Shown here piece after piece: positions 575-50,693 of a stretch of 64,000 bases of DNA. The translations under genes and the position numbers were made by a program. The stretch covers positions 12,377-76,376 of the forward strand of contig CAYQYU010000003.1 of assembly GCA_964421955.1 (NCBI GenBank), written 5' to 3'. The notes under the pieces are model-generated. The model worked only from the letters and a program-made list of their open reading frames with translations, did not search any database and was not told the origin of the DNA. Every line of letters starts with the position of its first letter. The first letter of the stretch is position 1. The DNA is from an uncultured archaeon (GTDB lineage Archaea; Nanohalarchaeota; Nanosalinia; Nanosalinales; Nanosalinaceae).

Positions 575-866
575 TAGATTCCGCGGTTACACCTTCGAGA
601 ACCCTGAAGCCGTTATAGAGGAACTACCCTACCAGACGGTCGAGAACGGTTCCCTGGATTTCGGGGTCAGGACGGGCAAAAACGGCCAGGAACTCTGGAA
701 CAAGATATACTCGGTGCTTGAAGAACGGCTGAACCTGGAACTAACCCCTTCCCCGAGAAACGCGGACTTGGTATATGATAAAGATGCAGAGGAAATTTAT
801 GCCCTGACACCGGATGCTATCGACGATCTCGAGGATATGGAATACACTGAGAAAGAGTTTATCTAG
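564..866 (+). CDS. Hypothetical acidic protein (start uncertain; TTG at 564 after GAGGTGG)
   Basis: Acidic ORF filling the gap between the kinase and gatE; no recognised motif. Confidence 0.55.
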   Translation: MWGNRFRGYTFENPEAVIEELPYQTVENGSLDFGVRTGKNGQELWNKIYSVLEERLNLELTPSPRNADLVYDKDAEEIYALTPDAIDDLEDMEYTEKEFI

Positions 867-879
867 AGGATCTACGACG

Positions 880-2736
880 ATGGAATACGAAGAACTCGGC
901 TTCAAGTGTGGTATAGAAATCCACCAGCAGCTCGCAACTGATGAAAAACTCTTCTGTAGCTGCCCTGTAGAAATGGAAGACGAAGTGCCCGATGCAAAAG
1001 TTGAGCGTTACCTGAAGGCGGTCGCCGGCGAGACCGGGGAGAAGGATCTTGCCGCCCGTATCGAGGACGTGAAATCCCGGAAGTTCGTCTACAATTATTA
1101 CAACAGGAACAACTGCCTGGTAGAACTCGACGAGGAGCCGCCGCACCCTCTTAACCCAGAGGCACTGAACACCGCATTAACGTTCGCAAGGATAGTTGAC
1201 GCAGACATACCAGACGAGATACAGGTGATGAGGAAACTCGTGGTCGATGGCTCCAACACCTCGGGTTTCCAGCGTACTGCGATGATCGGGCTCAACGGAG
1301 AAATCGAGACGGAGACCGGTGAGGTAGAGATAGAGGACATAGAGCTGGAAGAAGAATCCGCCGGCATACATGCACGGGAAAAAGATCAGGCGATCTACGA
1401 TCTCAACCGGCTAGGAATCCCTCTCGTGGAGGTCGGAACCGATGCATCGATAAAGAACCCGGAGCACGCCAAAGAAGTCGCGACCGAGATAGGGATGCTT
1501 TTACGGTCGACAAATAAGGCAAGAAGAGGTCTCGGAACCATAAGACAGGACGTCAACGTCTCCATAGCAGAAGGCTCGCGCGTCGAAATCAAGGGCTTCC
1601 AGGACGTCGAGAATATCGACAGATTGATCGAACTTGAGGTCGAGAGGCAGAAGAATCTTGTTGACCTCGGGGAGGAACTGGGCGACACGGATGTCGAGAC
1701 CAGTGAGGTTACCGGCATCTTTGAAGGCTCGGAAAACGATATTATCTCGACCGTTCTTGAGAACAATGGTGCGGTCTACGCCGTGAAACTGCCCGGGCTC
1801 GCTGGACGGATGAAGGAGAACATATCGGGCGACAGATATCTCGCACTTGAACTTGTCGACTACGCCAAGAGCCGCGGACTGAAGGGAATGATCCACACTG
1901 ACGAGGAAATAGAGAACTACGGGCTAGTGGACGAGTTTGAAGAACTGGGAGAAGATATGGTAAGGGAAGATGAAGACGTGCTCGCGATACTCGCAGGACC
2001 CCAGGAACAGGCCCAGGAAGCCGCGGAGGCTGTAAAGCAGCGGGCCGAGATGATCTACCTGGGCGAGGTACCTGAGGAGACCCGGAACGCGGAGCAGGAC
2101 TTCACAACCTCCTACTCCCGGCCGCTACCCGGTGCAGCAAGAATGTACCCCGAGACGGATATTCCCCCGATCACTGTTAGCAAGGAAGATATTGAGGAAA
2201 TCGATGAGAATCTTCCCGAGACCCTGGAGGAGCGAAGGGAAAAGTACGCCGACGAAATCGGAGATGAACTCGCGTCACAGATAGTTTCGAGCCCTCTACT
2301 GACGCTTTTCGAGGATTTCAAAGATCACGTGGAGCCAAGGCTTGCCGCGAACATATTCACCAACATATACGCAGGCCTGGAAGCAGAAAATGTCCCCGTG
2401 GAGAACCTGGAGAGGCCGCACTTTGAAGCCCTGTTTAGCTCGCTAGAGTCAGGCGATGCGGAGAAAGGAGATGTTGAAAAACTGCTCGAGTCGCTCGCCG
2501 AACGCAGCAAAGAGGATTCTGAAGAAGTTGTTGAGGATGTTCTCGCTGGGAAATCCTCGGAGGAAGAGATCAGGGAAGCAGTAAAGGAAGTACTGGAAGA
2601 AAAGTCAGAGATGGTTGAGGAACAGGGAATGCACGCCCAGGGCGCGTTGATGGGTGTGGTGATGCAGCACGTCGAGGCATCGGGCGACACAGTTTCCCGG
2701 ATTCTGCGAGATGAACTGGAGAACAGGCTAGGATAA
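880..2736 (+). CDS. gatE: Glu-tRNA(Gln) amidotransferase subunit E
   Basis: YEELGFKCGIEIHQQL, DGSNTSGFQRT, RRGLGTIRQDVNVSI, RPLPGAARMYPETD; start moved to ATG 880. Confidence 0.97.
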   Translation: MEYEELGFKCGIEIHQQLATDEKLFCSCPVEMEDEVPDAKVERYLKAVAGETGEKDLAARIEDVKSRKFVYNYYNRNNCLVELDEEPPHPLNPEALNTALTFARIVDADIPDEIQVMRKLVVDGSNTSGFQRTAMIGLNGEIETETGEVEIEDIELEEESAGIHAREKDQAIYDLNRLGIPLVEVGTDASIKNPEHAKEVATEIGMLLRSTNKARRGLGTIRQDVNVSIAEGSRVEIKGFQDVENIDRLIELEVERQKNLVDLGEELGDTDVETSEVTGIFEGSENDIISTVLENNGAVYAVKLPGLAGRMKENISGDRYLALELVDYAKSRGLKGMIHTDEEIENYGLVDEFEELGEDMVREDEDVLAILAGPQEQAQEAAEAVKQRAEMIYLGEVPEETRNAEQDFTTSYSRPLPGAARMYPETDIPPITVSKEDIEEIDENLPETLEERREKYADEIGDELASQIVSSPLLTLFEDFKDHVEPRLAANIFTNIYAGLEAENVPVENLERPHFEALFSSLESGDAEKGDVEKLLESLAERSKEDSEEVVEDVLAGKSSEEEIREAVKEVLEEKSEMVEEQGMHAQGALMGVVMQHVEASGDTVSRILRDELENRLG

Positions 2737-2763
2737 TAACTTTTTCTGGATGAAAGTTCGAGC

Positions 2764-3081
2764 ATGACACTAGGTGGACCTACTTACAGATCATTCGAAG
2801 AGATTTACAGAACCATTGAGGAGATAGGTAGTGGAGACGTTGAAACAGTGGGCCACCGCGTAGACGGGGCAGAGTTAATAGAAGAACCCGAAAAAGCAAA
2901 CGCAAGCGAGTATAAATGGATTAGAATGGAAACCGAACTGACGAGAGTCGAGTACTGGCCCGAATATGAGAAAATTCATGTAAATTACAGGGATGACGTA
3001 GGTTACAGAGCCGAGAACGAGAGCTCAGACCCCGCATCCGAAACTTTCAAGCACCTCATACCATCCAGAATATTCGACTGA
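2764..3081 (+). CDS. Hypothetical protein
   Basis: 105-aa acidic ORF, lower GC, no recognised motif. Confidence 0.6.
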   Translation: MTLGGPTYRSFEEIYRTIEEIGSGDVETVGHRVDGAELIEEPEKANASEYKWIRMETELTRVEYWPEYEKIHVNYRDDVGYRAENESSDPASETFKHLIPSRIFD

Positions 3082-3114
3082 AGGCGTAACAACTCTTTTT
3101 GTAACCGCATCGAT

Positions 3115-3131
3115 TGGTTTTTATAATTTAA
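3115..3131 (+). promoter_or_regulatory. Putative TATA box upstream of thermosome
   Basis: TTTTTATAATTTAA about 40-50 nt before the ATG; SD GAGGTGA at 3155-3161. Confidence 0.55.
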
Positions 3132-3168
3132 CTTCGATTCTTTCGGTGTTTCTAGAGGTGAACAAAAC

Positions 3169-4842
3169 ATGGCAGGACTAGGAGGACAACCTGTATTCAT
3201 AATGTCGGAAGACGCTACACGGCAAACCGGTGAAGACGCTCAGGAGAATAATATCGCTGCCTGTAAAACGGTCGCGAAGGCGGTAAGGACCACGCTCGGT
3301 CCCAAAGGTATGGACAAGATGATGGTTGACTCTGTCGGCGACATAGTCGTAACAAACGACGGGGTCACGATTCTCGAGGAAATGGATCTTGAACATCCAG
3401 CGGCCAAGATGATGGTCGAAGTCGCACAGACCCAGGAAGAGGAGGTCGGCGACGGAACCACGACCGCAGTAGTGCTCGCGGGAGAACTTCTGAAGCAGGC
3501 GGAGAACCTGCTCGACCAGGAGATCCACCCTACAATAATTACACAGGGCTTCAGAATGGCGCGACAGAGATCGACTGAAGTTCTTGAAGACATTGCGGAA
3601 GAAGTAGAGCTTGACGATGAAGATACGCTGGAAAAGGTGGCGATGACGGCGATGACCGGAAAAAGCGCGGAGGCAGCCCGCGATTACCTGGCCGAAATCG
3701 CGGTTGACGCGGTAACTGCAGTCGCAGAAAAGGGAGACTCGGGACTTGTCATCAACCGCGACATGATCAAGGTCGAGAAGAACCAGGGCGGTTCAGCAGA
3801 AGAAACCGAGCTCGTACAGGGCGTAATCCTAGACAAGGAAAAAGTACATAGCGGGATGCCCGACAAGATAGAAGACGCGAAGGTCGCAGTCATCAGTTCG
3901 CCGATCGAGGTGAAGGAGACAGAGACTGATGCTGAAATAAACATAAGCGACCCCGCACAGATGAAGAATTTCGTCGAGCAGGAGGAAGCCCAGCTCAAGG
4001 AGATGGTCGAGGCCATCAACGACGCGGGCGCTAACGTGGTCTTCTGCCAGAAAGGCATCGACGATATTGCACAGCACTACCTCGCCAAGAAGGGAATCTT
4101 CGCCGTGAGAAGAGTCTCTTCCAGCGACGTCGAGAAGCTGGCGAAGGCAACAGGAGCCTCGATCGTGACCTCGGTCGACGACATAGAGGCCAGCGATCTC
4201 GGAGAAGCAGGAACAGTCGGGCAGAAGAGAGTCGGTGGAAATGCGATGACCTTTGTCCAGGACTGTCCCGAGGCGAAGTCCGTCTCGATACTTATCAGAG
4301 GCGGAACCGAACACGTGGTGGACGAGATCGAGCGTGCTATGGAAGACGCTCTTGGAAGCGTTGCAAGCGCTCTCAAAAACGGTCGCATCGTCGGAGGTGG
4401 TGGCGCGACGGAAGTCGAGCTCGCCCGCGAACTCCGGGATCACGCGGACTCTGTCGGTGGAAGAGAACAGCTCGCGATAAATGCTTTTGCGGACGCTCTC
4501 GAGGTCCTTCCAAGAACGCTTGCGGAGAACGCCGGCTTCGATCCGATAGACACGCTGGTCGAACTGAGGAACAAACACGAGTCCGGCGCGAAATGGGCCG
4601 GAATCGACGTAACCTCTGGCAAGTCAGAGGCGCTGTTCGAGAAAGGTGTCGTAGAGCCGAAGCAGACCAAGACCCAGGCCGTCCAGTCCGCGAGCGAGGC
4701 CGCGGAAATGATCCTCCGGATCGACGACGTGATAAGCGCGTCAGGAATGGGTGGAGGAGACGACGCAGGAGGCGGACCTCCCGCGGGCGGAATGCCTGGT
4801 GGAGGAGGCATGCCCGGCGGTATGCCAGGCGGGATGATGTAA
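3169..4842 (+). CDS. ths: Thermosome (group II chaperonin) subunit
   Basis: [33 protein letters not shown]-rich C-terminal tail. Confidence 0.98.
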
Positions 4843-4849
4843 ACGCCTG

Positions 4850-4960
4850 CTGAACACAGGAACTCTAAGTTCCTGTTCGAGCAGACATCAGAGAGGAAGT
4901 CTGCGGCGCGCGTCAAGCCGTTCATGGAACGGCTTTCAACATTTCTACCTTTTTCTATTT
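4850..4960 (+). terminator. Three-hairpin cluster plus T-tract after thermosome
   Basis: ACAGGAACT/AGTTCCTGT, GCAGAC/GTCTGC, AAGCCGTTC/GAACGGCTT, then CTTTTTCTATTT. Confidence 0.55.
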
Positions 4961-5001
4961 CTTAGACAGTTCCAAAAGAGTTCGGCTCTAACACACTTTG
5001 T

Positions 5002-5325
5002 ATGGCTAATGATATCTCAAGCCTTTGGGAACTCTTTCACGATAGAATGTGGCTCATAATTATCTCTTCTTTTTGGTCAGGTTACTCCACCCTTTTCGTT
5101 TTAAGAAACGACTTCCTAACTAGCGAATTAGGATATATAGACAAGATATCGGTTAGTATAGGCCCCGGACTAATTATCACCTTAATGACTTTCGCCGGAA
5201 TTATGTTCCTACAGAAAGTCTGGTCTGGAGAACTCAACAAAGACAGAGCAGCAGAAAAAACATTCGAAATAATCGTGAGCTACGGCTCCGTCATTATTAC
5301 CTTCAAGCTACTTGGAGTTCTCTAA
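5002..5325 (+). CDS. Small membrane protein (about 3 TM), AT-rich
   Basis: Hydrophobic segments; composition differs from neighbours. Confidence 0.6.
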   Translation: MANDISSLWELFHDRMWLIIISSFWSGYSTLFVLRNDFLTSELGYIDKISVSIGPGLIITLMTFAGIMFLQKVWSGELNKDRAAEKTFEIIVSYGSVIITFKLLGVL

Positions 5326-5447
5326 TAAAAAGCCGGCTGGAGCCTTTTGGCGGAACGCCGAGCCTGATGATCGAACTTTCAGAAGTTCGAACCACTCCTT
5401 ATAAATACCGGGATTGGGAATTTCTTGGTGTATACGAGGTATATGCT

Positions 5448-6128
5448 ATGGCTGACGATGAAGTGGATCTAGGCGACGAAACAGACGATTACGAGGTTGT
5501 CCCTATCGGGCCTATTCGAAGGCTGGAAAAGAGAATGGATAATATCGAGACAAAGGCCACGAACAGCGGCACCGATCACGAGGTAATCAGGGACGTTATC
5601 GACATCATGAAGTCGAACCAGAAGATTGTCAACGATATGACCGAGTCGACCCACGAGCTCAAGAACGAGGTCGAGGACCTTACATACAAGATGGACGAGG
5701 TCGTCGACAACATGAACGAGTTCATGGATCTGCTGAAGGAAGCATCAGAGATGGATATGGAGGGAGAGATGGTCGGTGATATCCAGTCCCGTGTCGCGAA
5801 CGCGATCGGCGACAGAATGGACGAGGTCGTCAAGGATCTGCAGGAATCAAACCAGCAGGTCGTGGACTCGCTGGAAGGCATAAACGAGAGTATCAGGCGT
5901 TCATACGCGGCACAGCAGAACCAGAGCCGCAGATCCGGAGGTCAGGGAGGAAGTAGGAACTCCGGGAGAGGGATGACCGACAGATCCCGCCAGTCCGGAC
6001 AGGAATCTCAGGGCCGTTCCCGGCAGCAAGGACAGGAACAGCAACAGGCACAGCAGGGAGGAGGTAGTGACGAGAGGATGAGAAAACTCCGGAAACGGTT
6101 TAATAACGAAACAAATGAAGAGTCGTGA
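5448..6128 (+). CDS. Coiled-coil protein with Q/G/S/R low-complexity tail, first gene of the pilus locus
   Basis: Heptad-rich acidic helix; start ATG 5448 after GAGGT; stop overlaps the pilin GTG. Confidence 0.75.
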   Translation: MADDEVDLGDETDDYEVVPIGPIRRLEKRMDNIETKATNSGTDHEVIRDVIDIMKSNQKIVNDMTESTHELKNEVEDLTYKMDEVVDNMNEFMDLLKEASEMDMEGEMVGDIQSRVANAIGDRMDEVVKDLQESNQQVVDSLEGINESIRRSYAAQQNQSRRSGGQGGSRNSGRGMTDRSRQSGQESQGRSRQQGQEQQQAQQGGGSDERMRKLRKRFNNETNEES

Positions 6129-6655
6129 TCCAGCCCAATATTTCTAGAAAAGGGATTACTCCCGTAGTTGCAACTGTACTGCTTATCACTATCAGCGTTG
6201 CAGCCACTGCTTCTGCCTACACATTCATAACCAAGACACAGAAACAGGTCGGGGAATCATTCGAGCAGGACCTTAACCAGGAAGAGAGAAGGATGCAGTC
6301 GGATATCAATATCGAGTATGCTTACAACAGTACAGGAAGATTCGTGTTCATGAACGTAAGGAATACCGGTTCTGTAACGCTTCCCGTGAACAAGAGCGGA
6401 AGAAAGTATCTCACCCTTTACGCGGATGGTAGACCTGTAAGTTCCAGCGCCGGCGACAACGGCCAGGGATGGAAATACGCGGACCCCTCGCATGACATCT
6501 CAAATGAAGATCATCTCGATCCTGAAGAACTTCTCACCATCAATACAACCGTTAGATTCCCCTCATCCGGCAACAGCAAATCATTCAAACTTGTAGGCTC
6601 TTACGACACCTCAGACTCCCACGTTTGCTATAACTCGGGAACAGCGTCTTGCTAA
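6125..6655 (+). CDS. Archaeal type IV pilin/archaellin-like protein
   Basis: Class III signal RKG/ITPVVATVLLI; VRNTGS motif; C-terminal Cys pair. Confidence 0.9.
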   Translation: MIQPNISRKGITPVVATVLLITISVAATASAYTFITKTQKQVGESFEQDLNQEERRMQSDINIEYAYNSTGRFVFMNVRNTGSVTLPVNKSGRKYLTLYADGRPVSSSAGDNGQGWKYADPSHDISNEDHLDPEELLTINTTVRFPSSGNSKSFKLVGSYDTSDSHVCYNSGTASC

Positions 6656-6707
6656 GTTAAGTTATTTAAGTAAGGTGAAGAAAAACAACTCCAGAGGATT
6701 GGAATAC

Positions 6708-7235
6708 ATGAGAAAAGGTATCACACCTGTGATAGCAATTGTCCTGCTACTACTGATCACAGTAGGAGCTGTAGGAGTTGTCTGGACACAGTTCCAGAGC
6801 CTTACAGGCAACCCCGAGGATGATTTCAGTCAACAGCAACAGGTCAGGAACACTGAACTATCTTTTAGTTCAGTCTACAACAACGACACCTCGCAGACTG
6901 CTCCAGTAGGTGACTCGATCAACATCACGATCAGGAACACCGGTAGCGTGGCGATCAACGTAACCGAGGACCTGGAAATCTCGTTCGTTCCACAGGATTC
7001 GGACAGCGGACTGGCATTCAACGTCTATCCAGACACAGTTCAGGCCAGCTCAGACTGCTTCAACCCTCATGGCGGAGACGAGCAGATCGAGCCCAGTGAG
7101 TCCTACACCTGCAAGACAGGAATAGCATGGCCACAGCCTACCGAAAACGTAGGAATCGTTGTATCGATGCAGGGTGAAGATAAGTCTTGGTCCTACTCCT
7201 GTTCGCCTACGACCAGTAGCAGTGTAACCTGCTAA
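6708..7235 (+). CDS. Archaeal type IV pilin (probable major pilin)
   Basis: MRKG/ITPVIAIVLLLLITV; IRNTGS; own TTATTTAA box and SD upstream. Confidence 0.9.
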   Translation: MRKGITPVIAIVLLLLITVGAVGVVWTQFQSLTGNPEDDFSQQQQVRNTELSFSSVYNNDTSQTAPVGDSINITIRNTGSVAINVTEDLEISFVPQDSDSGLAFNVYPDTVQASSDCFNPHGGDEQIEPSESYTCKTGIAWPQPTENVGIVVSMQGEDKSWSYSCSPTTSSSVTC

Positions 7236-7292
7236 AACTTCCCACATTTCTTTCCACTTATTTTATATTCTACTAGATAGCTTTGTCTCTAT

Positions 7293-7940
7293 ATGGAAGG
7301 ACAGACGCAGGCACTCACAGCGGTCCTTATAACTTCAGTCACGGTGGGTGCGGTTGCGACTGCCTACATATGGGGAACACCGCTGCTTGAAAAGAGACAG
7401 AGCAAGGCAGAACTACAGCAAGTTGAGGATGATGTTCTTAATCTCAGGGAAGAGATAGCATCAGTCAGCAGGAGTGGACCCCAGTCAACATCCCAGGTGG
7501 ATCTAGAGGTACCCCGGGGAAGAGTAGAGGTTAATGGGCAGAACAACTACATTGAGGTACATACGCAGGCTCAGCGACCACCCTATCCCTCCGGGACATG
7601 GACACTTATCCAGGGTAAGAACCCCAGGAACCTTAGCATAGGCTCCGGAAGCTACGGCATAGAGGGAGAGGACCTTCCCGGCGTTGTCGCAGTCAGGGCC
7701 GCTTCAGGCTCAAGTTCCACAGTTGTCACGTACAGGATAGAATTCAGGAACCTCTACACCGATACCCCCACAGGAGCTGAACTCAGGAAAGTTAAGCTGA
7801 GGTCTGCAGGAAGACAGACTGCAACCGAGGAAGCCAACCTTCTCATATCAAACATGGGCACGGAAGAAGACAGTATACAGGTCGAAACAGGAGAGACACT
7901 TCCACGGACGAAAACGATCGTAGAGATAGATCTGCAGTGA
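7293..7940 (+). CDS. Minor pilin-like protein
   Basis: EG/Q class III-like signal followed by a hydrophobic helix. Confidence 0.75.
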   Translation: MEGQTQALTAVLITSVTVGAVATAYIWGTPLLEKRQSKAELQQVEDDVLNLREEIASVSRSGPQSTSQVDLEVPRGRVEVNGQNNYIEVHTQAQRPPYPSGTWTLIQGKNPRNLSIGSGSYGIEGEDLPGVVAVRAASGSSSTVVTYRIEFRNLYTDTPTGAELRKVKLRSAGRQTATEEANLLISNMGTEEDSIQVETGETLPRTKTIVEIDLQ

Positions 7941-7947
7941 TTCACAG

Positions 7948-8346
7948 ATGAAAGGTCAGTACCTGGCGGTCGAGAGCGTTATGACGTTTGGAATGGGCCT
8001 GGTAGTTGCAATAGGCACAATATCCGCTTTCTCAGGTTACAAGGGCGAGATGATGGAAACCGCCAGACAGCAGCAGGTAAACGCCATAGAGTCCGAGGTA
8101 TCAGCCGCTGTCCACGCACTTAGACCGGCGGAATCAGGCAACAAACAGGTCGATTTACCCGAAACCCTGGGTGGAAGCGACTACGAGATAGCGCTGAACG
8201 GGGGAGTAAAGATATTCGTGAACAACCAGGAATACTTTACAGAACTCTCTGATCTCGAATCCACCTACGACTTCCAGGGCTCAGCAAGCGGGGGATCAGT
8301 AAAAGTATACAAAAGGGGAAACCAATATACTTTAAGGGCAAACTAA
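7948..8346 (+). CDS. Minor pilin-like protein
   Basis: MKG/QYLAVE then a hydrophobic helix. Confidence 0.75.
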   Translation: MKGQYLAVESVMTFGMGLVVAIGTISAFSGYKGEMMETARQQQVNAIESEVSAAVHALRPAESGNKQVDLPETLGGSDYEIALNGGVKIFVNNQEYFTELSDLESTYDFQGSASGGSVKVYKRGNQYTLRAN

Positions 8347-10055
8347 TGAGTCTGAACTTCAACAACCTCATAGAAAACCTCAAGAAGGCGAAGCACCCGG
8401 AATGGTATGAAGAGGAAGAACAGGAAGAAGAGCACGACATGACAGGTGTCGAGCTGCCTGCACCGGGCAGTTTCAACCCGGAGATGGTCGAGGAAAGCGA
8501 AGAAGGAGAGAAACTTACCAATGTTGATGTGTCGTACCCTCTTGTCCCGAAAGATCCAGAACCCGGAGAAATAGTTTACGCATGGGGCCACATAACCTGG
8601 AGCGAGGAGAAGGGAGAGCTGATCTACAGGATAATTGAACCCGAGCTGACAGGAAACACACAGGAAATACTCGAAAAGATAAAGCAAATACTGGAGCGGA
8701 GTCTTGACATCCAGTTCAACGAGCTGGAGGCAGGAGAGGCCGACGAATACCTGTCAGAGAAAATCGACATGATCGTTGACAAGTACAACATCTCCCTCAG
8801 CGACCGCCAGAGAGAAATAATCCGTTACTACGCATACAGGGACTTCGCGGGACTCGGAAAGCTCCAGCCACTGATGAACGACAAGGAAGTCGAGGACATC
8901 TCCTGCGACGGCCTCGATATCCCTGTATACGCATACCACAGGAACCCCAAGTTCGGGTCTGTCAAGACAACCATTATGTGGGAAGACGAGGAAGAACTTG
9001 ACAGTTTCGTCATGAAGCTGGCGCAGCGCTGCGGCCGATCTATATCGGTTTCAAGCCCGCTGCTTGACGGTGCGTTGCCCGATGGATCACGTGTACAGGC
9101 AACGCTGGCGACAGATATCGCGAGAAAGGGGAGCAACTTCACTATCAGGCGTTTCACGGAAGATCCGCTGACTCCTATCCACATGATGGAGTTCGAGACG
9201 GAAAATGCCCAGATGCTCTCATACCTCTGGACTCTTGTCGAACACGGCAAATCAATACTTGTAGCAGGAACAACTGGTGCAGGAAAGACGTCGCAGCTGA
9301 ACGCGTTATCGCTTTTCATACGACCGGAAAAAAAGATCGTATCAATCGAGGACACGCCCGAGCTACGTTTACCTCACGACCACTGGGTGCCGGAAGTCGC
9401 GCGCTCGGGTTTCGGATCATCCGCGGAAGAAGGCGGGCAAGTATCCATGGACGATTTACTAAAAGAATCCCTGCGCCAGCGTCCGGAATACATTATTGTC
9501 GGTGAGGTCCGTGGTGAAGAGGCCTACATCCTGTTCCAGCAGATGGCAACGGGGCACACCGGCCTGTCAACGATCCACGCCGACTCGCTCGACATGCTTA
9601 TGGACCGGCTGACGACAAACCCTATCAATCTCTCTCCTGCGTTGATCGAGACTCTCGACGCAATAATGCTTATCGCAAGGATCAGGAGGAACGACAGCTA
9701 TATCAGACGTATAAAGGGTATTTACGAGATCGAGGGATATGACAAGAGAACCGGTATCGACGCGAACAAGGTCTTCGGCTGGGACCCTGAAACCGATGAA
9801 TACGTGGTCGAAAACAATTCCATGCTGCTCAAACAGATCGTCGACCAGACCGGCATGGATGAGGAAGAGATCCAGCGTGAACTGGTGAACAAACAGCACG
9901 TCCTGACCTGGATGGAGGAACAGCAGCACAAGCACTACCGGAAGGTCGGGGACATAATATCTCGATACTACTCTAACTCCGAGGCAGTCCTCGAAAAGGC
10001 AACCCGCCAGGTAAACTCTGATCAAGAACAAGTAGAGTTAGAGGAGAATGCTTGA
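8346..10055 (+). CDS. Type IV pilus assembly ATPase (PilB/FlaI/VirB11 family)
   Basis: GTTGAGKT, SIEDTPEL, LRQRPEYIIVGEVRG, TGH..STIHA. Confidence 0.95.
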   Translation: MSLNFNNLIENLKKAKHPEWYEEEEQEEEHDMTGVELPAPGSFNPEMVEESEEGEKLTNVDVSYPLVPKDPEPGEIVYAWGHITWSEEKGELIYRIIEPELTGNTQEILEKIKQILERSLDIQFNELEAGEADEYLSEKIDMIVDKYNISLSDRQREIIRYYAYRDFAGLGKLQPLMNDKEVEDISCDGLDIPVYAYHRNPKFGSVKTTIMWEDEEELDSFVMKLAQRCGRSISVSSPLLDGALPDGSRVQATLATDIARKGSNFTIRRFTEDPLTPIHMMEFETENAQMLSYLWTLVEHGKSILVAGTTGAGKTSQLNALSLFIRPEKKIVSIEDTPELRLPHDHWVPEVARSGFGSSAEEGGQVSMDDLLKESLRQRPEYIIVGEVRGEEAYILFQQMATGHTGLSTIHADSLDMLMDRLTTNPINLSPALIETLDAIMLIARIRRNDSYIRRIKGIYEIEGYDKRTGIDANKVFGWDPETDEYVVENNSMLLKQIVDQTGMDEEEIQRELVNKQHVLTWMEEQQHKHYRKVGDIISRYYSNSEAVLEKATRQVNSDQEQVELEENA

Positions 10056-10920
10056 GACCTATGCAGAGTTCTGCTACAACCAGATCGGAAACTACGTCCT
10101 CGACTATCTGGAGTATTTCGAGGATCTTAGACCACAGCTCTCAAAGGCAAACATAAACGTCTCGCTGCCAGAATACGTCGCCGCAATAGCCTTCTCATCA
10201 CTTGTAGCATCAGTATGCAGCGTTTTCGTGCTCAGCAGCATCTTCATGGCCAGCATGGGGATCTCGGGGTTCATATTCGGAATAACCGCCTCACTGATCG
10301 TGGGTGCAGCTACCATGCTGGGATTCTACCTCTATCCATCGATACTCATAAGGAACAGGGCCTCGAAGATCCGGGACTCCCTGCCTTTCGCGACGATGTA
10401 CATGTCAACCCTCGCGGGAACCGGGACCTCGATGCAGAAGATATTTGCAGTGCTGGCGGAGCAGGAAGAGTACGGTGAAGTCGCCCAGGAGGCCGAAAAG
10501 ATAAACAGGGACATAGAGACCTTCGGCATGGACATCAGCGAGGCCCTGAAAAACGCCGCTGACAGAACGCCGAGCAACGACTTCAAGGACCTTATGTGGG
10601 GAATGAACCATGTCATAACCTCCGGCGGATCACTGAGAGTCTTCCTCCAGGAAAGAGCACAGTCCCTGATGAACGAGTACCAGCGGCGCGTCGAAGAGTT
10701 TGCGAGCCAGCTCGGACTCCTGGTGGAAATGTACATTACAATTGTAATTGTCGGATCGATAATATTTACCTCGATGAGCGCCGTCATGAGCACTTTCACA
10801 TCGATGCCCAGCAACGTCATCGTCACTATCCAGATACTTACAATATTCATAGGCCTACCGCTTATATCCGGGATGTTCATAGTACTTGTCAAGGGCATGG
10901 CGCCAGGAGGAGTGAGGTGA
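10048..10920 (+). CDS. Type II/IV secretion F-family membrane platform protein (TadC-like)
   Basis: LPFATMYM..LAG, EYGEVAQE, DISEAL...A.RTPS. Confidence 0.9.
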   Translation: MLETYAEFCYNQIGNYVLDYLEYFEDLRPQLSKANINVSLPEYVAAIAFSSLVASVCSVFVLSSIFMASMGISGFIFGITASLIVGAATMLGFYLYPSILIRNRASKIRDSLPFATMYMSTLAGTGTSMQKIFAVLAEQEEYGEVAQEAEKINRDIETFGMDISEALKNAADRTPSNDFKDLMWGMNHVITSGGSLRVFLQERAQSLMNEYQRRVEEFASQLGLLVEMYITIVIVGSIIFTSMSAVMSTFTSMPSNVIVTIQILTIFIGLPLISGMFIVLVKGMAPGGVR

Positions 10921-10958
10921 TGTCTTATGGTAGGAGAAATCCATAGAGGTGATAACAG

Positions 10959-11984
10959 GTGCTAGAGTTCTTCAGGGAAGAAGAGTACCAGAAAGGATAC
11001 TCCCTTGAAGACAAGATTGTCTTCGGATCTATATTTGCAGGAGGACTACTGATAATCATAGGCATAATTATCTACAGCACAGTATCATCCCAGATGGGAA
11101 GCGCTCTGCTGCTTCTGGGACTTATCGGAGGCATCCTGCCCTACGGCATCATATCATTCCTGAAGAACCGGGCCATAAGACAGATGGAGGACCAGTTCCC
11201 TTCCTTCCTGAAAGATCTGGCCGAATCGAAGAGAGGAGGCATGACAATAATACAGGCCTTCGAATCCGCCAGGGAAACAGACTACGGCCGGCTGAACAGC
11301 GAGATAGAAAAGATACACAACGAACTCACCTGGGGTATACCATTTCCCGAAGTCATGCAGAGATTCTCCCACCGGGTAAGCGACTCCGCAGTGATCCAGG
11401 AATCCATGTCTATCCTCCTCCAGAGCTTCAAGAGCGGAGGAAACATCACGAAAACTATCGAGGCTATCGCCGAGGACGCAACCGATCTTAAGGAGACTAT
11501 CCAGAAGAAACAGTCAAAGATCAAACAGCAGGTCTTCATCATGTACGTCATCTACTTCCTGTTCATCGGAATCACAATCGGAATCTACGCAATGCTTGGG
11601 CAGCTCCTCGGCCTTGGAACCGCCGGAGAAGGAGCCCTCGGAGGCCTCGACTTCCTGGGCGAGGGCGGCGGAGGCTCCGTAAACTACTGTAGTGGAGAGA
11701 TAGCTGCCGCGGCACCGCTCTGCCAGACCGGGAGGCTCTTCGGCTTCGTACCAGGTAACGTGACCTCTTTCACGTCAGAGTACGCACTGAAATACAGCTA
11801 CGGGAACATGGCTTACTACAAATCGCTGCTTTTCGCGATGCTCATGGTCCAGGGTGCCGCAACAGGAGCCGTGGCAGGACAGATATCTGAGGGAAGCCCG
11901 AGCGCGGGCGTCAAACACGCCCTTATAATGCTTCCAGTGGCCTTCGTGGCATACATGTACGCAGTGGGACTGGCAGGTGTCTGA
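10959..11984 (+). CDS. Type II/IV secretion F-family membrane platform protein (TadB/C-like)
   Basis: FPSFLKDLAE..RGGM, DYGRLNSE, GAVAGQISEG...AGVKH. Confidence 0.9.
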   Translation: MLEFFREEEYQKGYSLEDKIVFGSIFAGGLLIIIGIIIYSTVSSQMGSALLLLGLIGGILPYGIISFLKNRAIRQMEDQFPSFLKDLAESKRGGMTIIQAFESARETDYGRLNSEIEKIHNELTWGIPFPEVMQRFSHRVSDSAVIQESMSILLQSFKSGGNITKTIEAIAEDATDLKETIQKKQSKIKQQVFIMYVIYFLFIGITIGIYAMLGQLLGLGTAGEGALGGLDFLGEGGGGSVNYCSGEIAAAAPLCQTGRLFGFVPGNVTSFTSEYALKYSYGNMAYYKSLLFAMLMVQGAATGAVAGQISEGSPSAGVKHALIMLPVAFVAYMYAVGLAGV

Positions 11985-12036: not shown

Positions 12037-12884
12037 AGGGGCAGATAAACCTGGAGTTCCTGGCCGCTGCCCTGCTATACCTGGGAGCGCTCGGAACAAT
12101 AGTAGTTCTCAGTTCAGGCACAATACCTGAATTCACGGAAGACATGGAGAGAGCATCCCTGAACCTGGAGGCCCGGCAGATTTCAACCAAGATCCTGACA
12201 ACCTCCGGACACCACAGCTTTGGATCAGGGGGTCCTAACTGGCACAGTAACAATACCACCGTCGATAACATAGAGGCCTTCGGACTGGCATCCGACTATC
12301 TCCAGGTTGAGAGAGACAAGATATCCAGGATGAAAACCGCTAATCCAAGAAAGGGCTTCAACTACTTCAACTACACACAGTTCAAGAACGTTACCGGGGT
12401 CGACAACCAGTACCGCTTCAACTTCACCTGGATGCCGATAGTGGAGACACCGCGCTCATTCACCAGGGGCTCTGCACCCTTCGCGGCAAAAGACGGCAAA
12501 CCCAACATCACGGAACCCAGCACAGGGTACTACATAGCATCGGGTAACGACATCCACTACGGCTCCAGCACTCTAAACGGCCGGACATATAACTTTCTGG
12601 TCACCTCCCATGACGGAGTCTACAACACTACCTATGTATCCAATAACTGGGATTTCGGCGGATATCCTCCTCTCGGAATAGACGACAACATCAACCTCTA
12701 CGGCGAGGAATACAGGATAAGGAGCATCCAGAACCGGCCGGATGAGCCGGGGTCAATGCTTATACTGGGACAGCATCTCAAAACCTTTGGAGCGAGCGTT
12801 GACTCGGATTCTACCGTTACAAGCATGCAAAGATTTGCGCTGCTCGAGGGAGAACCACTGCGGGTGAGAGTTCTGGCATGGTAG
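12033..12884 (+). CDS. Pilin-like protein
   Basis: KG/QINLEFLAAALL class III signal; N-glycosylation sequons. Confidence 0.8.
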   Translation: MKGQINLEFLAAALLYLGALGTIVVLSSGTIPEFTEDMERASLNLEARQISTKILTTSGHHSFGSGGPNWHSNNTTVDNIEAFGLASDYLQVERDKISRMKTANPRKGFNYFNYTQFKNVTGVDNQYRFNFTWMPIVETPRSFTRGSAPFAAKDGKPNITEPSTGYYIASGNDIHYGSSTLNGRTYNFLVTSHDGVYNTTYVSNNWDFGGYPPLGIDDNINLYGEEYRIRSIQNRPDEPGSMLILGQHLKTFGASVDSDSTVTSMQRFALLEGEPLRVRVLAW

Positions 12885-46538: not shown

Positions 46539-46997
46539 ATGGATGTCAAAATTAGCTCGGTAAAGGAAAACCCGCTGCTAGGAAGACGGGAGGTAGAGGC
46601 AAGTATCGACCACGAAGGAGAGAAAACTCCTAGCGAGGAAGATATTGTGTCAAGAATCGCGGCCGAGAACAATCTCGACGAAGAGAACATCCAGGTTGAC
46701 GGAATCTACACTGGCTTCGGCTCACAGCATTCCAGGGCGGTACTCAAAGTTTTCGAGGACTTTGAATACGACGAGGAGCTTGAAGAGGAAACGATCGAAG
46801 AGGAAGAGACTGGAAGCGGAAAAGCAACCTCAGGAGAATCAAGCGATATCGACTACGAAGAGATCGTTTCCAGCACTATTACCGATGCGAAGGACGCGCT
46901 CGGGGAACTCGATGATCCGGACTACGAGAAGGCGCTTGAAGCCGAGGAAGCAAACAAGGACAGAAAAACCTTCAAAGAATGGCTCGAAGCGCAATAA
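46539..46997 (+). CDS. rps24e: 30S ribosomal protein S24e with an extra C-terminal domain
   Basis: ENPLLGRRE, TPS, TGFG; acidic linker and extra helical domain. Confidence 0.92.
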   Translation: MDVKISSVKENPLLGRREVEASIDHEGEKTPSEEDIVSRIAAENNLDEENIQVDGIYTGFGSQHSRAVLKVFEDFEYDEELEEETIEEEETGSGKATSGESSDIDYEEIVSSTITDAKDALGELDDPDYEKALEAEEANKDRKTFKEWLEAQ

Positions 46998-47034
46998 AGG
47001 TTAAAAATTAGGAGAGACAGAGGTGAATTATTGA

Positions 47035-47235
47035 ATGGCGATTTTAAGGGCTGAAGAAATACGCGAAATGGATACAGGAGAGCTGAAGGAGAAACTCACC
47101 GATCTACAGAAGGAGCTTGTTGAAGAGCGGGGCCAGATCGAAGTTGGAGGCTTCGCGGACAATCCAGGACGAATTGGAGAGATGAAAAAAACTATAGCGA
47201 AGATAAAGACTGTTCTCAACGAACGTTCTGAATAA
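47035..47235 (+). CDS. rpl29: 50S ribosomal protein L29
   Basis: MAILRAEEIREM, NPGRIGEMKKTIAKIKT. Confidence 0.95.
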   Translation: MAILRAEEIREMDTGELKEKLTDLQKELVEERGQIEVGGFADNPGRIGEMKKTIAKIKTVLNERSE

Positions 47236-47291
47236 TGACTGAAATTCAAAGAATTTCTGGCTTGCAAAAGATCACCAGAGGTGATCTTTGA
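47235..47291 (+). repeat. Hairpin/mini-ORF connector element (MTEIQRISGLQKITRGDL)
   Basis: GAAATTC/GAATTTC and AAAGATCACC/GGTGATCTTT; TAATG at the start, TGA-ATG at the end. Confidence 0.75.
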
Positions 47292-47603
47292 ATGGCAGAT
47301 ACATGTCCCAAGTGCGGAATGCCCGAAGACCTTTGCGTCTGTGATTCTATAGCCAAGGGCGAGCAGAAGATCAGCGTCAAACTCGACACCAGGAGCTTCG
47401 GAAAGGAGATGACCGTTGTCGAAGGCCTTGACGACGGAGAGGTCGATCTCGAAGATTTAGCGTCCACGCTCAAGTCAAAACTTGCCTGTGGAGGCACCGC
47501 GAAGAACGGTCAGATCCAGCTACAGGGAGACCACACCCGGCGCATAACAGAGGTTCTCGTGGAAGAAGGCTTCGAGGAATCCCAGATCGAAGTCAACGCA
47601 TAG
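47292..47603 (+). CDS. Translation initiation factor aIF1 (SUI1/YciH)
   Basis: CPKCGMP..LCVC, LKSKLACGGT, LQGDH. Confidence 0.95.
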   Translation: MADTCPKCGMPEDLCVCDSIAKGEQKISVKLDTRSFGKEMTVVEGLDDGEVDLEDLASTLKSKLACGGTAKNGQIQLQGDHTRRITEVLVEEGFEESQIEVNA

Positions 47604-47643
47604 GCACCAAATAGAAAAGAATCAGACATCCAAAAGTTTTCTA

Positions 47644-48696
47644 ATGTCAGAAGATTTCATCCTGCCTCCAAAATTAGAGAAAGGAGACAAAATAGCAGTT
47701 ATTGGAACCTCAAGCGGAGTACAAGAGTTCCCGAAAGTTCTTGAGATAGGAGTGAAGAGACTGGAAAACCGCTTCGGACTAAATCCCGTTGTTTATGATA
47801 CAGCAAGGAAAAATACGGAGTATTTGAACAGTCACCCCGAGGAGAGAGCCGAAGAATTCATGCATGCCTTTGAAGACCCGGAAACAAAGGCAGTTATAGC
47901 CTTGACTGGAGGGGATGAACAGCTCAGAACACTGAAACACCTTGAGCCGGAAAGACTGAAGGATAATCCGACGAGGTTCTACGGCATCAGCGACAACACC
48001 AACATCCATATATACCTCTGGAGTCTCGGAATACAGAGCTTCTACGGCGGTCAAATACTTGACGATTTACTGGCTGAAGGAGAACTCGGAGAGTATAACT
48101 ACAAATATCTAGAGAAAGCCTTCTTTGAGGATAGTCTTGGAGAACTCAAGCCCTCTGAAAAGTTCACTGACGAATTCTTTGATCTGTTCCAAGAAGAAAT
48201 TGAGGATGACAGAAAACGTTTCGACTCCCCAAACTGGGAGTTCTGGAACTTCGATGAAGAGGTTGAAGGCAGAGTTTTCGGAGGATGCTTCGAGATAATT
48301 AACTGGCAGATGGTAGTTCAGAGATACTTACCTGAACCCAAAAAACTTGAAGACACAGTATTGGCGCTGGAAACTTCTGAGGAAGCGCCTTCAGGAACAG
48401 AGGTCAAGAGATGGCTCACATGTCTTGGAGAAAACGGGATTCTCGATAAATTCGCCGCAATAATTGTAGGAAGACCCCCGAGATCACCTCTTCACGGCGA
48501 TAATAGGGGTGAAGAGGAGAAAAGAGAGTATCACAGAAACCAGAAGAAGATTATCAAGCAAGAAGTCGAAAGATACTGCCCAGACACTCCTATAGTCTTC
48601 GACATGGATTTCGGCCATACACACCCTAAAATACCTCTAAAATCAGGGGGAAAAATCAGGATAGAGCCTGAAAACAGAGAGATAACCTCTCTCTGA
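47644..48696 (+). CDS. S66 peptidase (LD-carboxypeptidase/MccF family)
   Basis: PPKLEKGDKIA, GISDNT, LETSEE, DFGHT.P (S-E-H triad). Confidence 0.92.
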   Translation: MSEDFILPPKLEKGDKIAVIGTSSGVQEFPKVLEIGVKRLENRFGLNPVVYDTARKNTEYLNSHPEERAEEFMHAFEDPETKAVIALTGGDEQLRTLKHLEPERLKDNPTRFYGISDNTNIHIYLWSLGIQSFYGGQILDDLLAEGELGEYNYKYLEKAFFEDSLGELKPSEKFTDEFFDLFQEEIEDDRKRFDSPNWEFWNFDEEVEGRVFGGCFEIINWQMVVQRYLPEPKKLEDTVLALETSEEAPSGTEVKRWLTCLGENGILDKFAAIIVGRPPRSPLHGDNRGEEEKREYHRNQKKIIKQEVERYCPDTPIVFDMDFGHTHPKIPLKSGGKIRIEPENREITSL

Positions 48697-48719
48697 AAAC
48701 AAAAGTATGAAGAAACGTC

Positions 48720-49004
48720 ATGCCAATAACACCGGAAAACCTGCCGCGCCACGAACTCATCGGCCTTGAAGCAGAAGTCCTTGAGTCGACAGACGAGAAC
48801 CAGATCGGGATTTCCGGAGAGGTGCTAGACGAGACCCAGAATATGCTCCGGATCGAGGACAGGAAGGTTGAGAAGGAGAACTGTGTCTTCCGCTTCACGC
48901 TGCCCGATGGAGAAAAAGTAAAAATTGACGGCAAGCTGCTTGCGAAGCGGCCAGAGGATCGCGTCGGAATGAAATTGCCCGGCAAATGGGAGTACGTCGA
49001 CTGA
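48720..49004 (+). CDS. rnp1: RNase P protein subunit Rpp29
   Basis: HELIGL, GEVLDET.N, IDG..L..RPEDR. Confidence 0.93.
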   Translation: MPITPENLPRHELIGLEAEVLESTDENQIGISGEVLDETQNMLRIEDRKVEKENCVFRFTLPDGEKVKIDGKLLAKRPEDRVGMKLPGKWEYVD

Positions 49005-49072
49005 GTTTCAGTTTACTACAGGAAAACTGACAGCGATACACTTCCCTTTTAAAGGTTACCTTCACTTGTGAA

Positions 49073-49186
49073 GGATACGAGCCAACTCCGTCTGGAGTCG
49101 GATGATAACCCGATGCTCATTGTCTGAGTATCTGGTTTGACTACGATACTCTGGAGCGGCGCGTAACCTTGAAAACCTACGTGTCC
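49073..49186 (+). ncRNA. Candidate structured non-coding RNA
   Basis: TTTTAAA box about 20-26 nt upstream; terminal stem GGATACG/CGTGTCC; several internal hairpins; no ORF. Confidence 0.4.
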
Positions 49187-49252
49187 GTCTTTAGAGCTTA
49201 TCTGACCAACTGCAGGTGGTTTAAAAAGGTTGGTTTCGAGGATTGATTCACG

Positions 49253-49567
49253 ATGTCACTTGGACTCGATATTGAAACACCCGCAGAAGAATGCGAGGAC
49301 AAGAACTGTCCCTTCCACGGAAACGTCTCTGTGAGAGGCAGTTCTTTCACCGGAGAGGTAGAGTCCACGAAAATGGATAAATCCGCCACAGTCAGGTGGG
49401 AGTACTCGGAAAAGATTCCGAAGTACGAGAGATACGAGCGAAGGAACACCAAGATCTCTGTCCACGTACCTGGGTGTCTCGATGTTGAAGAGGGAGACTC
49501 TGTCCGGGTGGTCGAAACCCGTCCGATCTCGAAGACCAAAAGCGCAGTAATCGTGGAGGTTCAATAG
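49253..49567 (+). CDS. rps17: 30S ribosomal protein S17
   Basis: CEDKNCPFHG, KYERYE, ETRPISKTK. Confidence 0.96.
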   Translation: MSLGLDIETPAEECEDKNCPFHGNVSVRGSSFTGEVESTKMDKSATVRWEYSEKIPKYERYERRNTKISVHVPGCLDVEEGDSVRVVETRPISKTKSAVIVEVQ

Positions 49568-49569
49568 AT

Positions 49570-49968
49570 ATGAAACCCGTCGGCGCCAATATTACGCGAA
49601 CCCTGGACAAGGGCGCATCACTGACGTGTGCCGACAACTCAGGGGCAAAAAAGCTGGAGATCATCGGAGTCAAGGCAAGAAAAGGCCGCCGATCAAGAAG
49701 AGAATCCGCAGGAGTCGGCGATATAGTTACCGTCAAGATTCTGAAGGGAGACCAGGAAGTAAAGCACCAGGTCTTCGACGCAGTAATTGTGAGACAGACA
49801 AAAGAATACCAGCGACCCTCGGGAATGAGGATCGCCTTTGAAGACAACGCGGCAGTTCTAATTGAAGAGAACGGTCTTCCAAAGGGCTCTGTCACGAGAG
49901 GACCTATCGCAAAAGAAGTGGTTCAACGCTTCTCGCCAATTGGAAAGATCGCGTCGCAGGTAGTATGA
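49570..49968 (+). CDS. rpl14: 50S ribosomal protein L14
   Basis: CADNSGAK, FEDNAAV, GPIAKEV. Confidence 0.97.
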   Translation: MKPVGANITRTLDKGASLTCADNSGAKKLEIIGVKARKGRRSRRESAGVGDIVTVKILKGDQEVKHQVFDAVIVRQTKEYQRPSGMRIAFEDNAAVLIEENGLPKGSVTRGPIAKEVVQRFSPIGKIASQVV

Positions 49969-50693
49969 TTATGACACAGAAGACAGACAACTGGAGCAAG
50001 GAATGGAATTCGAGCACGAATCCATCGAAGCAGAGGAAATACAGAGAAAACGCTCCGCTTCACGTAAAAGATAAGCTTGTATCTGCGAACCTCGCCCCGG
50101 AACTCAGGGAAGAGCTCGGGACACGTTCAATTTCAATCAGGGCCGGCGACCGAGTAGAGGTTATGCGCGGCGATGAATCCGGCAGAGAAGGTATCGTCAG
50201 CAATATCGACCGGGAAAACGAGAGAGTGTACGTCAACGGTATCGAGGTCGAGAGAGTCGACGGAACCGAGATGGAGAAGGCTCTGAGGCCGTCAAACCTC
50301 CAGGTAACCGCACTGAATATTGAAGACAACAGGAGACTCGAGAAATACGATATTGAAGACGTCGAGGCGATCGGCGTTGAGGAAGAAGAGATGGAGGAGG
50401 CACTGGAAGAAGAGGAAGAAGGCGAAATGATGCAGCAGATGCAGCAGGGCGAGAGCTCTCTGGAAAAGGATGAAGAGGAGGAAGGAGAACTAGAGGCCGA
50501 AGAGGAAGAGACTGGAGAAGATACCGAAACATCTTCCGCGGACTACGAAGAAATCCTATCCGGGACCATCTCGGACGCAAAAGACGCACTTGAAGACCTG
50601 GAAAATCCGGACTGGGAAGCCGCACTAAAGGCCGAAGAATCCAACAAAAACCGCACAACATTCATCGACTGGCTCGAAAAAAGAGTTGAATAA
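49965..50693 (+). CDS. rpl24: 50S ribosomal protein L24 with an acidic linker and extra C-terminal domain
   Basis: PSKQRK..NAPLH, GDRVEVMRG, RPSNL. Confidence 0.94.
   Translation: MIMTQKTDNWSKEWNSSTNPSKQRKYRENAPLHVKDKLVSANLAPELREELGTRSISIRAGDRVEVMRGDESGREGIVSNIDRENERVYVNGIEVERVDGTEMEKALRPSNLQVTALNIEDNRRLEKYDIEDVEAIGVEEEEMEEALEEEEEGEMMQQMQQGESSLEKDEEEEGELEAEEEETGEDTETSSADYEEILSGTISDAKDALEDLENPDWEAALKAEESNKNRTTFIDWLEKRVE

Follow-up and report, generated by a model that had tools for sequence, protein, structure and literature searches.

A small helical module appended to eS24, uL24 and many other proteins of nanohaloarchaea

Why should two unrelated ribosomal proteins, one of the small and one of the large subunit, end in what appears to be the same extra domain? 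The question is raised by eS24 and uL24 in a stretch of 64,000 nucleotides (hereafter the window; positions 12,377 to 76,376 of contig CAYQYU010000003.1, assembly GCA_964421955.1) from an uncultured archaeon of the Nanohalarchaeota. A first-pass annotation, made from the letters alone, had suggested that both proteins carry, behind long acidic linkers, a homologous helical tail of about 48 residues, which would be displayed on both subunits to dock a factor, to pair subunits or ribosomes or to serve in localisation. The window is part of contig C3 of a genome of 922,649 bp (27 contigs, 98.8% complete).

The shared tail of eS24 and uL24

The identities of both proteins were confirmed by profile matches above the cut-offs. 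The core of eS24 matched Pfam Ribosomal_S24e (PF01282) over residues 4-86 (E 8.4e-18, 64.7 bits against a cut-off of 24.5). The core of uL24 matched Ribosomal_L26 (PF16906) over residues 17-125 (E 5.8e-20, 72 bits against a cut-off of 28.8) and NCBIfam TIGR01080 over residues 17-126 (E 6.1e-32, 110.4 bits against a cut-off of 47.65); KOW matches were obtained, too. The tails, beginning at residue 101 in eS24 and residue 189 in uL24, lie outside these core profiles, and both proteins indeed end with the sequences that had been quoted for them. When the two proteins were compared by BLASTP, the tails alone aligned, with 32 of 52 residues identical (62%) and 44 of 52 positive, without gaps and with an E-value of 1e-19 after compositional matrix adjustment. 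The Smith-Waterman score of the tails was 171, compared to a mean of 27.6 (standard deviation 5.4, maximum 63) for 2000 shuffles of the uL24 tail, which corresponds to z = 26.7. Because the similarity holds after adjustment and exceeds the shuffles to this extent, it is not an artefact of composition, and the proposed homology stands. A chance resemblance of two acidic low-complexity tails could be suspected from the content of Asp and Glu, which is about 30% in both proteins; it is ruled out by these values, by hundreds of profile copies with conserved non-acidic positions and by the confidently predicted fold, and we assign it practically no probability.

The tails are discrete modules tethered by linkers to proteins of both subunits. 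The linker is long and acidic, as described before, in uL24 (61 residues, 52% Asp/Glu) but not in eS24, where the measured stretch comprises only about 13 residues with 31% Asp/Glu. The feature had been taken to start at position 46860, which falls inside the eS24 module (Table 1). The AlphaFold2 model of the uL24 module (mean predicted local distance difference test score (pLDDT) 89.7, predicted template modelling score 0.70) has helices at residues 3-9, 14-23, 29-38 and 43-53. The fold is predicted with confidence as a compact bundle in which one helix is shorter than the other three. The same helices appeared in a model of a full-length membrane protein that carries the module, calculated from a separate alignment of 33 sequences (pLDDT 95-98), in which a transmembrane helix and then an alpha/beta ectodomain come after them. 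When 38 diverse copies were aligned and numbered according to the uL24 tail, Glu36 and Arg42 proved invariant (38/38), Lys18 is present in 36 of 38 and Lys40 is near-invariant. Thr13, Pro27-Asp28 and Thr44, which precede helices, are strongly conserved, and hydrophobic positions follow a helical spacing. The mean net charge of the module is -6.8; the last 16 residues carry on average +1.5.

Searches of databases did not lead to a known family. In a Pfam-A copy of 2025, no family matched eS24 residues 101-152 or uL24 residues 189-242 at E ≤ 1, and in NCBIfam 20.0 the single row that reaches the uL24 tail, NF033649, scored 16.4 bits, far below its cut-off of 110. The precomputed Pfam lists of 120 listed homologues contained host domains only. 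A sequence profile search of the PDB gave a best E-value of 0.9; a local match to the MA3 domain of PDCD4 (E about 1) covered 25 residues (9-33). Foldseek, which had been recommended for the predicted fold, found no PDB match; its lowest E-values were 3.9 with the module and 0.07 with the full membrane protein. In a comparison with 48,161 chains by VIA-align, the highest Z was 5.4, with nine chains at Z ≥ 5 and none at Z ≥ 8; the rows were single units of helical repeat proteins (Ctf4, IFT, eIF4GI, PPR, ankyrin), graded by the tool as a common arrangement. These values neither assign a known fold nor exclude one. In the main texts searched of the literature on nanohaloarchaeal and DPANN proteins, no description of the module was found (among them PMC7203096 and bioRxiv 10.1101/2025.02.15.638363).

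Table 1 Features of the eS24 and uL24 genes in the window. Bit scores of module copies refer to a profile built from the six copies of the same genome.
Feature	Position	Strand	Description
eS24 gene	46539-46997	+	Open reading frame, 152 residues and stop; core, short linker, C-terminal module
eS24 linker	46797-46838	+	About residues 87-100, boundaries approximate; between Pfam core and module
eS24 module copy	46839-46994	+	Residues 101-152; BLASTP against uL24 tail E 1e-19; 99.4 bits
uL24 gene	49965-50693	+	Open reading frame, 242 residues and stop; core, acidic linker, C-terminal module
uL24 acidic low-complexity linker	50343-50528	+	About residues 127-188; 61 residues, 52% Asp/Glu, 2% Lys/Arg
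uL24 module copy	50529-50690	+	Residues 189-242, outside core profiles; 107.4 bits

Between the two genes, an open reading frame of 350 codons with a non-ribosomal look (47644-48696), flanked by small open reading frames (47292-47603 and 48720-49004), lies within the ribosomal protein cluster.

Hosts, distribution and history of the module

The search of the proteome and of relatives with a profile, proposed before as a check, revealed further copies in both. In the source genome, tblastn and the tail profile detected six strong copies (95-107 bits), located on eS24, uL24, uS3, eL31, a 299-residue protein and a 210-residue protein. The uS3 protein, encoded on contig C1, matched Pfam KH_2 and Ribosomal_S3_C and has a linker of 128 residues (49% Asp/Glu) in front of a C-terminal module. 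The eL31 protein, encoded on contig C11, also has the module at its C-terminus; its Pfam L31e match (24.9 bits) is slightly below the cut-off of 25 bits. The 299-residue protein has weak winged-helix matches, a long coiled-coil region and the module at the C-terminus, and the 210-residue protein is a single-pass membrane protein with the module at the N-terminus. Three weak copies (12-28 bits) were found in addition, two in a 619-residue protein and one in a 241-residue protein. The genome's own uL10 (C5:63470-64558) has a plain acidic end, lacking both the module and the conserved end that is usual for stalk proteins, and its aP1 (about C5:65380-65690) has kept the ordinary hydrophobic C-terminal end of stalk proteins.

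Some observations were made on the surroundings of these genes. Since uS3 is encoded on contig C1, outside the ribosomal cluster of the window, the usual uL22-uS3-uL29 neighbourhood is split in this assembly. Inspected by eye, the gene of the coiled-coil module protein (C1:16000-27000; 1771-9633 within this region) lies between a prepilin-peptidase-like gene and a gene for a FlaI/PilB-like ATPase with two polytopic membrane proteins; a pilin-like gene and a gene for a 571-residue coiled-coil protein are also present, and the locus looks like one of the type IV pilus or archaellum type. A second pilus-type locus may be present in the window itself (6708-11981), where pilin-like open reading frames with hydrophobic, signal-like N-terminal segments (6708-7232, 7293-7937 and 7948-8343) were seen by eye next to an open reading frame of 569 codons and two encoding membrane proteins. 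The gene of the 619-residue protein with two modules (C1:43000-52000; 791-5547 within this region) follows, again by eye, a MoxR-like ATPase gene and two more genes. Elsewhere, MoxR (AAA_3) ATPases have a pair of modules at their own N-termini (P0100, P0159-P0163), so that the module may be connected with MoxR systems.

When 1.84 billion cluster representatives were searched exhaustively with the profile, 319 proteins matched at E ≤ 1e-3, of which 123 reached E ≤ 1e-10; with so few matches among so many representatives, the family is real but narrow. Among the best 150 of the 319 representatives, the ribosomal hosts (Pfam E ≤ 1e-4) were eS24 (12), eL31 (10), uL24 (3), uL22 (2), uS3 (1) and eL32 (1, with an N-terminal module). 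Other hosts identified in the same set were subunit A'' of RNA polymerase (RNA_pol_Rpb1_5, two modules), a KaiC-type ATPase with five modules, MoxR AAA_3 with two N-terminal modules, Gins51, OapC, Peptidase_S78 (a Caudovirus prohead protease), C2H2 fingers and FG-GAP proteins. In a collection clustered at 90% identity, 97 of the 120 matches listed were ribosomal proteins (uS3 43, uL24 22, eS24 20, eL31 12); proteins of Candidatus Nanosalina sp. VS9-1 and Candidatus Nanohalovita haloferacivicina were among them. In a search that started from the genome's own cores, a membrane protein family was the most frequent host class of the cluster representatives (37 of 156, query included). Loci of other lineages added further hosts confirmed by Pfam, namely ParA-like and MinD-like proteins, two NuoC proteins (Complex1_30kDa), topoisomerase I, further A'' subunits, a protein in which an N-terminal module is followed by a transmembrane segment and a Thioredoxin_4/DSBA domain, and uL10 (stalk P0) in relative G009. 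The latter (L084:1498-2661:-) ends in the module, which replaces the usual end of the stalk protein. The idea of a module specific for the ribosome is thus not supported.

Of 70 genomes of the window's phylum, 69 gave matches to the module at E ≤ 1e-5 (1-11 in each genome), and it was also detected in 40 of 41 relatives. The only genome without a match at this threshold was G028, which is 93% complete. Its uS3 (L116, G028:C9, 1150-2076, minus strand) has a long Lys/Glu-rich tail, the end of which scored just 6.5 bits with the module profile; this is a hint, and no more, of a copy that has diverged in a branch of non-halophiles. Outside the phylum, copies are sparse and were seen in Hadarchaeota and Altiarchaeales. 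One of two Hadarchaeota genomes searched had the module on eS24, a ParA-like protein and NuoC, the other on topoisomerase I, a MinD-like protein and NuoC; in the Altiarchaeales genome searched only soluble hosts were found (eL32, A'' and a 96-residue protein). In Hadarchaeota metagenome-assembled genomes (MAGs), the module stands at the end of NuoC-type, MinD-like, ParA-like and topoisomerase I proteins (L106:1135-1665, L108:1084-1680, L103:1495-2370 (minus), L104:733-1671 and L097:1501-2985 (minus)). Bacterial MinD has a membrane-targeting helix at its C-terminus, and the module of the Hadarchaeota MinD-like protein occupies this position. Public contigs with the module were titled Nanohaloarchaea, Nanohalobium, Nanoanaerosalina and Asbonarchaeaceae, with a few Hadarchaeota and one Altiarchaeales MAG (61 loci); this taxon list is a lower bound because the scan used one narrow peptide pattern (alignment A1). 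In the form of basic repeats, the family may extend far outside these archaea, since P0083, a protein of 1381 residues from a contig of 314,944 bp, is Ala/Pro-rich and basic, has many tandem diverged copies (nine stretches scored) and does not look halophilic. With the uL24 tail as query, tblastn against phage and plasmid collections gave no match at E ≤ 0.01. With P0051 it gave one chance-level match to phages (E 0.4), and in PHROGs there were weak matches only, to families of unknown function (best E 1.1e-4). A search of sequencing runs listed four DNA rows from one study and no RNA row.

Across the phylum, the module is fixed at the C-termini of eS24, uS3, uL24 and eL31 and at the N-terminus of the single-pass membrane protein, which is conserved. 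All five complete relatives compared have it on uS3, uL24, eS24 and the membrane protein. With the query used, eL31 was recognised in one of the five, and three small hosts stayed unclassified. Modules on the same host were on average 56% identical (62 pairs), modules of the same genome 45% (80 pairs) and the background 44% (419 pairs). Since the modules group by host and not by genome, the fusions are, as judged from these sequences, old and vertically inherited. One pair departs from this pattern. The uL24 and uS3 tails of the source genome (window 50469-50690 and C1:130677-130898, the latter about 5678-5899 of L002) are 83% identical in protein and 84% in DNA over 222 nucleotides, including about 45 nucleotides of linker, with identical runs of up to about 35 nucleotides. 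Among 54 codons there are 36 identical ones, 9 with synonymous and 9 with non-synonymous differences. The corresponding protein identity is 41-58% in four of the five complete relatives and 67% in G016. That the two tails are unusually alike in both protein and DNA, linker part included, points to a fairly recent gene conversion between the unlinked uL24 and uS3 genes.

Possible function

The architecture of the hosts gives some indication of what the module may do. In 148 representatives, it was C-terminal in 80, N-terminal in 45 and internal in 12, and 11 proteins consisted of little else. Two or more copies were present in 17 of the 148, and tandem arrays contain up to five. Single copies are found on many unrelated "client" machines; several copies occur on coiled-coil, hexameric-ATPase or membrane-anchored proteins. 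The linkers are of low complexity and acidic in halophile contexts (49-62% Asp/Glu on uL24, eL31 and uS3) and Lys/Glu-rich in the Altiarchaeales and G028 examples. Proteins of at least 150 residues with an N-terminal module have one hydrophobic segment in 42 of 46 cases. In membrane hosts, the part across the single transmembrane helix is a DsbA-like domain, an FG-GAP propeller preceded by a signal peptide, or an ectodomain with a signal peptide. Because the module lies opposite these ectodomains, we infer from the topology that it faces the cytoplasm.

A small independent fold, which is nearly always placed at a chain end behind a disordered spacer, is single on clients and multiple on scaffold-like hosts and lies in the cytoplasm, would best fit a promiscuous, mobile, tethered handle for docking between proteins. 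We put this forward tentatively as the leading explanation, with somewhat less than an even chance of being correct. The folded "sticker" on its flexible "spacer" would bring a defined set of large machines to a common partner, perhaps one hub protein used by all or further module copies, and copies on the cytoplasmic ends of membrane proteins would serve as a membrane-proximal anchor for the set. Four handles would be present per ribosome, on eS24 and uS3 of the small and on uL24 and eL31 of the large subunit. In ribosome structures, uL24 and eL31 are neighbours of the tunnel exit, uS3 is found where the mRNA enters, and eS24 faces the solvent on the small subunit. Modules are present on both subunits and, in other lineages, also on uL22, eL32 and uL10, which suggests that a terminus need only be exposed to solvent, so that the whole particle would be tagged and not a functional site. 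Thus, docking of a factor or localisation, two of the roles considered in the first-pass annotation, is the most plausible class of function, whereas a pairing of subunits or ribosomes is improbable as the basic function since the module is also found on many non-ribosomal and membrane proteins.

Several points weigh against the docking handle. The modules of one genome are hardly more alike than those of different genomes, so there is no genome-wide signal of co-evolution as a highly specific self-interaction might leave. Surface charges of about -16 to +12, depending on the lineage, are difficult to reconcile with a conserved protein interface unless it is formed by the few invariant residues. 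A membrane-anchored copy is not universal, as the soluble hosts of the Altiarchaeales genome demonstrate. Many of the non-ribosomal hosts (A'', topoisomerase I, ParA, Gins51, OapC, zinc-finger and winged-helix proteins) act on DNA, which would suit binding of nucleic acids as well. Protein binding, its partner and an effect on localisation are what we infer, and the analysis yielded no partner candidate. Self- or mutual association of modules is attractive in view of the scaffold-like hosts with multiple copies, but it is not favoured by the lack of co-variation within genomes. A homodimer prediction for two module copies (alignment A2), run without controls, scored 0.06 against a mark of 0.42; it gave no verdict and is evidence neither for nor against binding. 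We consider it unlikely, albeit worth stating, that stickers binding to themselves or to one another link ribosomes, RNA polymerase, AAA+/KaiC-type ATPases and the proteins of replication and segregation to membrane-anchored copies and so build a membrane-tethered gene-expression "factory" or a condensate-like mesh.

The main rival is an accessory module that would bind RNA or DNA non-specifically through its last helix and the preceding loop (conserved Lys-x-Arg-Lys/Thr-Thr). It would raise the affinity of ribosomal proteins, RNA polymerase, topoisomerase, ParA, GINS and OapC and would tie the nucleoid to membrane proteins. Most soluble hosts are indeed associated with nucleic acids, the end of the otherwise acidic module is net positive, the conserved residues include the invariant Arg42 and the near-invariant Lys18 and Lys40, and in non-halophile contexts the module can be strongly basic (+12 in P0082, and the many basic repeats of the 1381-residue protein). 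Nevertheless, the mean charge is negative, Hadarchaeota copies are acidic too, and the acidic linkers between module and host would repel nucleic acid. There is no obvious need for such binding in NuoC, MinD, MoxR, DsbA-type and FG-GAP membrane proteins, and neither sequence searches nor the fold-search rows shown gave a SAP, HeH, HhH or HTH match, which leaves room for a distant relation. Acidic linkers, negative charge and structural neighbours from generic helical repeats (HEAT-, TPR- or ANK-like) fit better to a displayed binding module than to a nucleic-acid binder, and we regard the latter as rather improbable.

Two further explanations were weighed against the docking handle. The acidic linker and its folded cap could act in cis as an aid to solubility or assembly that shields basic or aggregation-prone proteins before assembly and is perhaps then removed, in keeping with hosts that are mostly subunits of large assemblies, with highly acidic linkers and with the acidic, salt-adapted proteome of the lineage; one extra domain on proteins of both subunits also recalls the ubiquitin fusions of eukaryotes. 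A specific fold with invariant polar residues, kept across the phylum and beyond, exceeds what such an aid needs, though, and versions with basic linkers exist in non-halophiles. The module is moreover N-terminal on membrane proteins and occurs in tandem arrays, and no cleavage motif was seen, which makes this idea less probable still. A device specific for the ribosome, in which the modules of the small and the large subunit bind to one another or to a ribosome factor, for instance in hibernation or the organisation of polysomes, with all other copies being secondary, would account for the predominance of ribosomal proteins among the matches listed in the 90% collection, for the four ribosomal hosts on both subunits in this genome and for the uL10 end in G009. 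It is very improbable given that a membrane protein is the largest host class among the representatives, that at least 12 unrelated non-ribosomal hosts exist and that the matches in the two Hadarchaeota genomes searched were ParA-like, NuoC, topoisomerase I and MinD-like hosts beside a single eS24.

Relation to known systems and implications

The closest functional parallel is the ribosomal stalk. Its tail, the C-terminal peptide of uL10 and P1 in archaea and eukaryotes or the C-terminal domain of bL12 in bacteria, is restricted to the stalk and binds translational GTPases. Like the module, it is a conserved terminal element on a flexible acidic hinge, present in several copies per ribosome, that fishes for partners. 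However, it is a short hydrophobic peptide (in bacteria, a domain of another fold) on stalk proteins only, whereas the module, folded and about 50 residues long, sits on many non-stalk hosts and does not fall under the definition of the stalk C-terminal peptide. The genetic parallel is ubiquitin, which in eukaryotes is fused to the N-termini of eS31 and eL40, has a beta-grasp fold, is cleaved off and aids both proteins. Here, too, the same extra domain is found on one protein of each subunit, but the module is C-terminal on ribosomal proteins (with the exception of eL32), all-helical, tethered by a linker and present on many other proteins. Architecturally, small promiscuous adaptor domains are nearest. 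Dockerin-cohesin, SAM, PB1 and death-fold modules are likewise small and spread over many hosts, single on clients and in tandem on coiled-coil or membrane-anchored scaffold-like proteins; this is an analogy in the way of working, with no relation in sequence or fold. The module lacks the defining features of each of these systems.

Other resemblances concern the domain itself. SAP, HeH and LEM domains are small helical domains at the termini of diverse proteins, including the N-termini of membrane proteins, on flexible linkers. In contrast, the module has no Pfam match at E ≤ 1, is acidic overall and is modelled with four helices, not as helix-extended-helix; SAP, HeH and Rho_N were not among the Foldseek and VIA-align rows shown, which does not exclude a distant relation. 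The best structural neighbours of the module were units of HEAT/MA3-, TPR- and ANK-like proteins such as eIF4GI (1ug3) and the MA3 domain of PDCD4. With 1ug3_B, VIA-align gave Z 5.2 and a root mean square deviation (rmsd) of 2.3 Å over 54 residues, tied with unrelated helical proteins. Those proteins consist of multiple repeats whereas the module stands alone, and a Z below 8 reflects a common helical arrangement and implies no family membership. A language-model search for look-alikes gave as nearest clusters those in which 12-13% of the members have Pfam DUF8129 (PF26450), with scores of 0.79-0.76, below the mark of 0.9. Among the BFVD models, proteins of haloarchaeal tailed viruses (HSTV-2 L7TK25, HFTV1 A0A410N6Y0 and a Siphoviridae protein) were similar (TM-score 0.63-0.76, rmsd about 2 Å, 24-27% identity), with Foldseek E-values of 0.7-1.3 that are below significance; the proteins, from Halorubrum and Haloferax tailed viruses, are small and uncharacterised. 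The likenesses to DUF8129 and to viral proteins are leads, not assignments, and a DUF of Pfam 38.1 may overlap the module.

What is new, then, is an accessory tethered domain that is striking in the breadth of its hosts and in its fixation across a phylum. Even with a mundane function, it would deserve a domain definition, so that these tails are no longer read as low-complexity extensions. It also offers an experimental handle, being small, predicted to fold by itself and expressible as bait, and nanohaloarchaea with such fusions are on record by name in co-culture. If self- or mutually associating stickers did network these machines, ultra-small symbiotic cells would have a prokaryotic sticker-and-spacer organising system made from a single type of domain. 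Ribosomal proteins are among the most conserved proteins known, and archaea of the DPANN type have genomes of about 1 Mb and a cell biology that is almost unknown. One folded extra domain fixed on four ribosomal proteins of both subunits in a whole phylum is unusual, the more so with polymerase, topoisomerase, ParA/MinD, respiratory-complex and membrane hosts, and suggests that cells of these archaea are organised or regulated at a level that has so far gone unrecognised.

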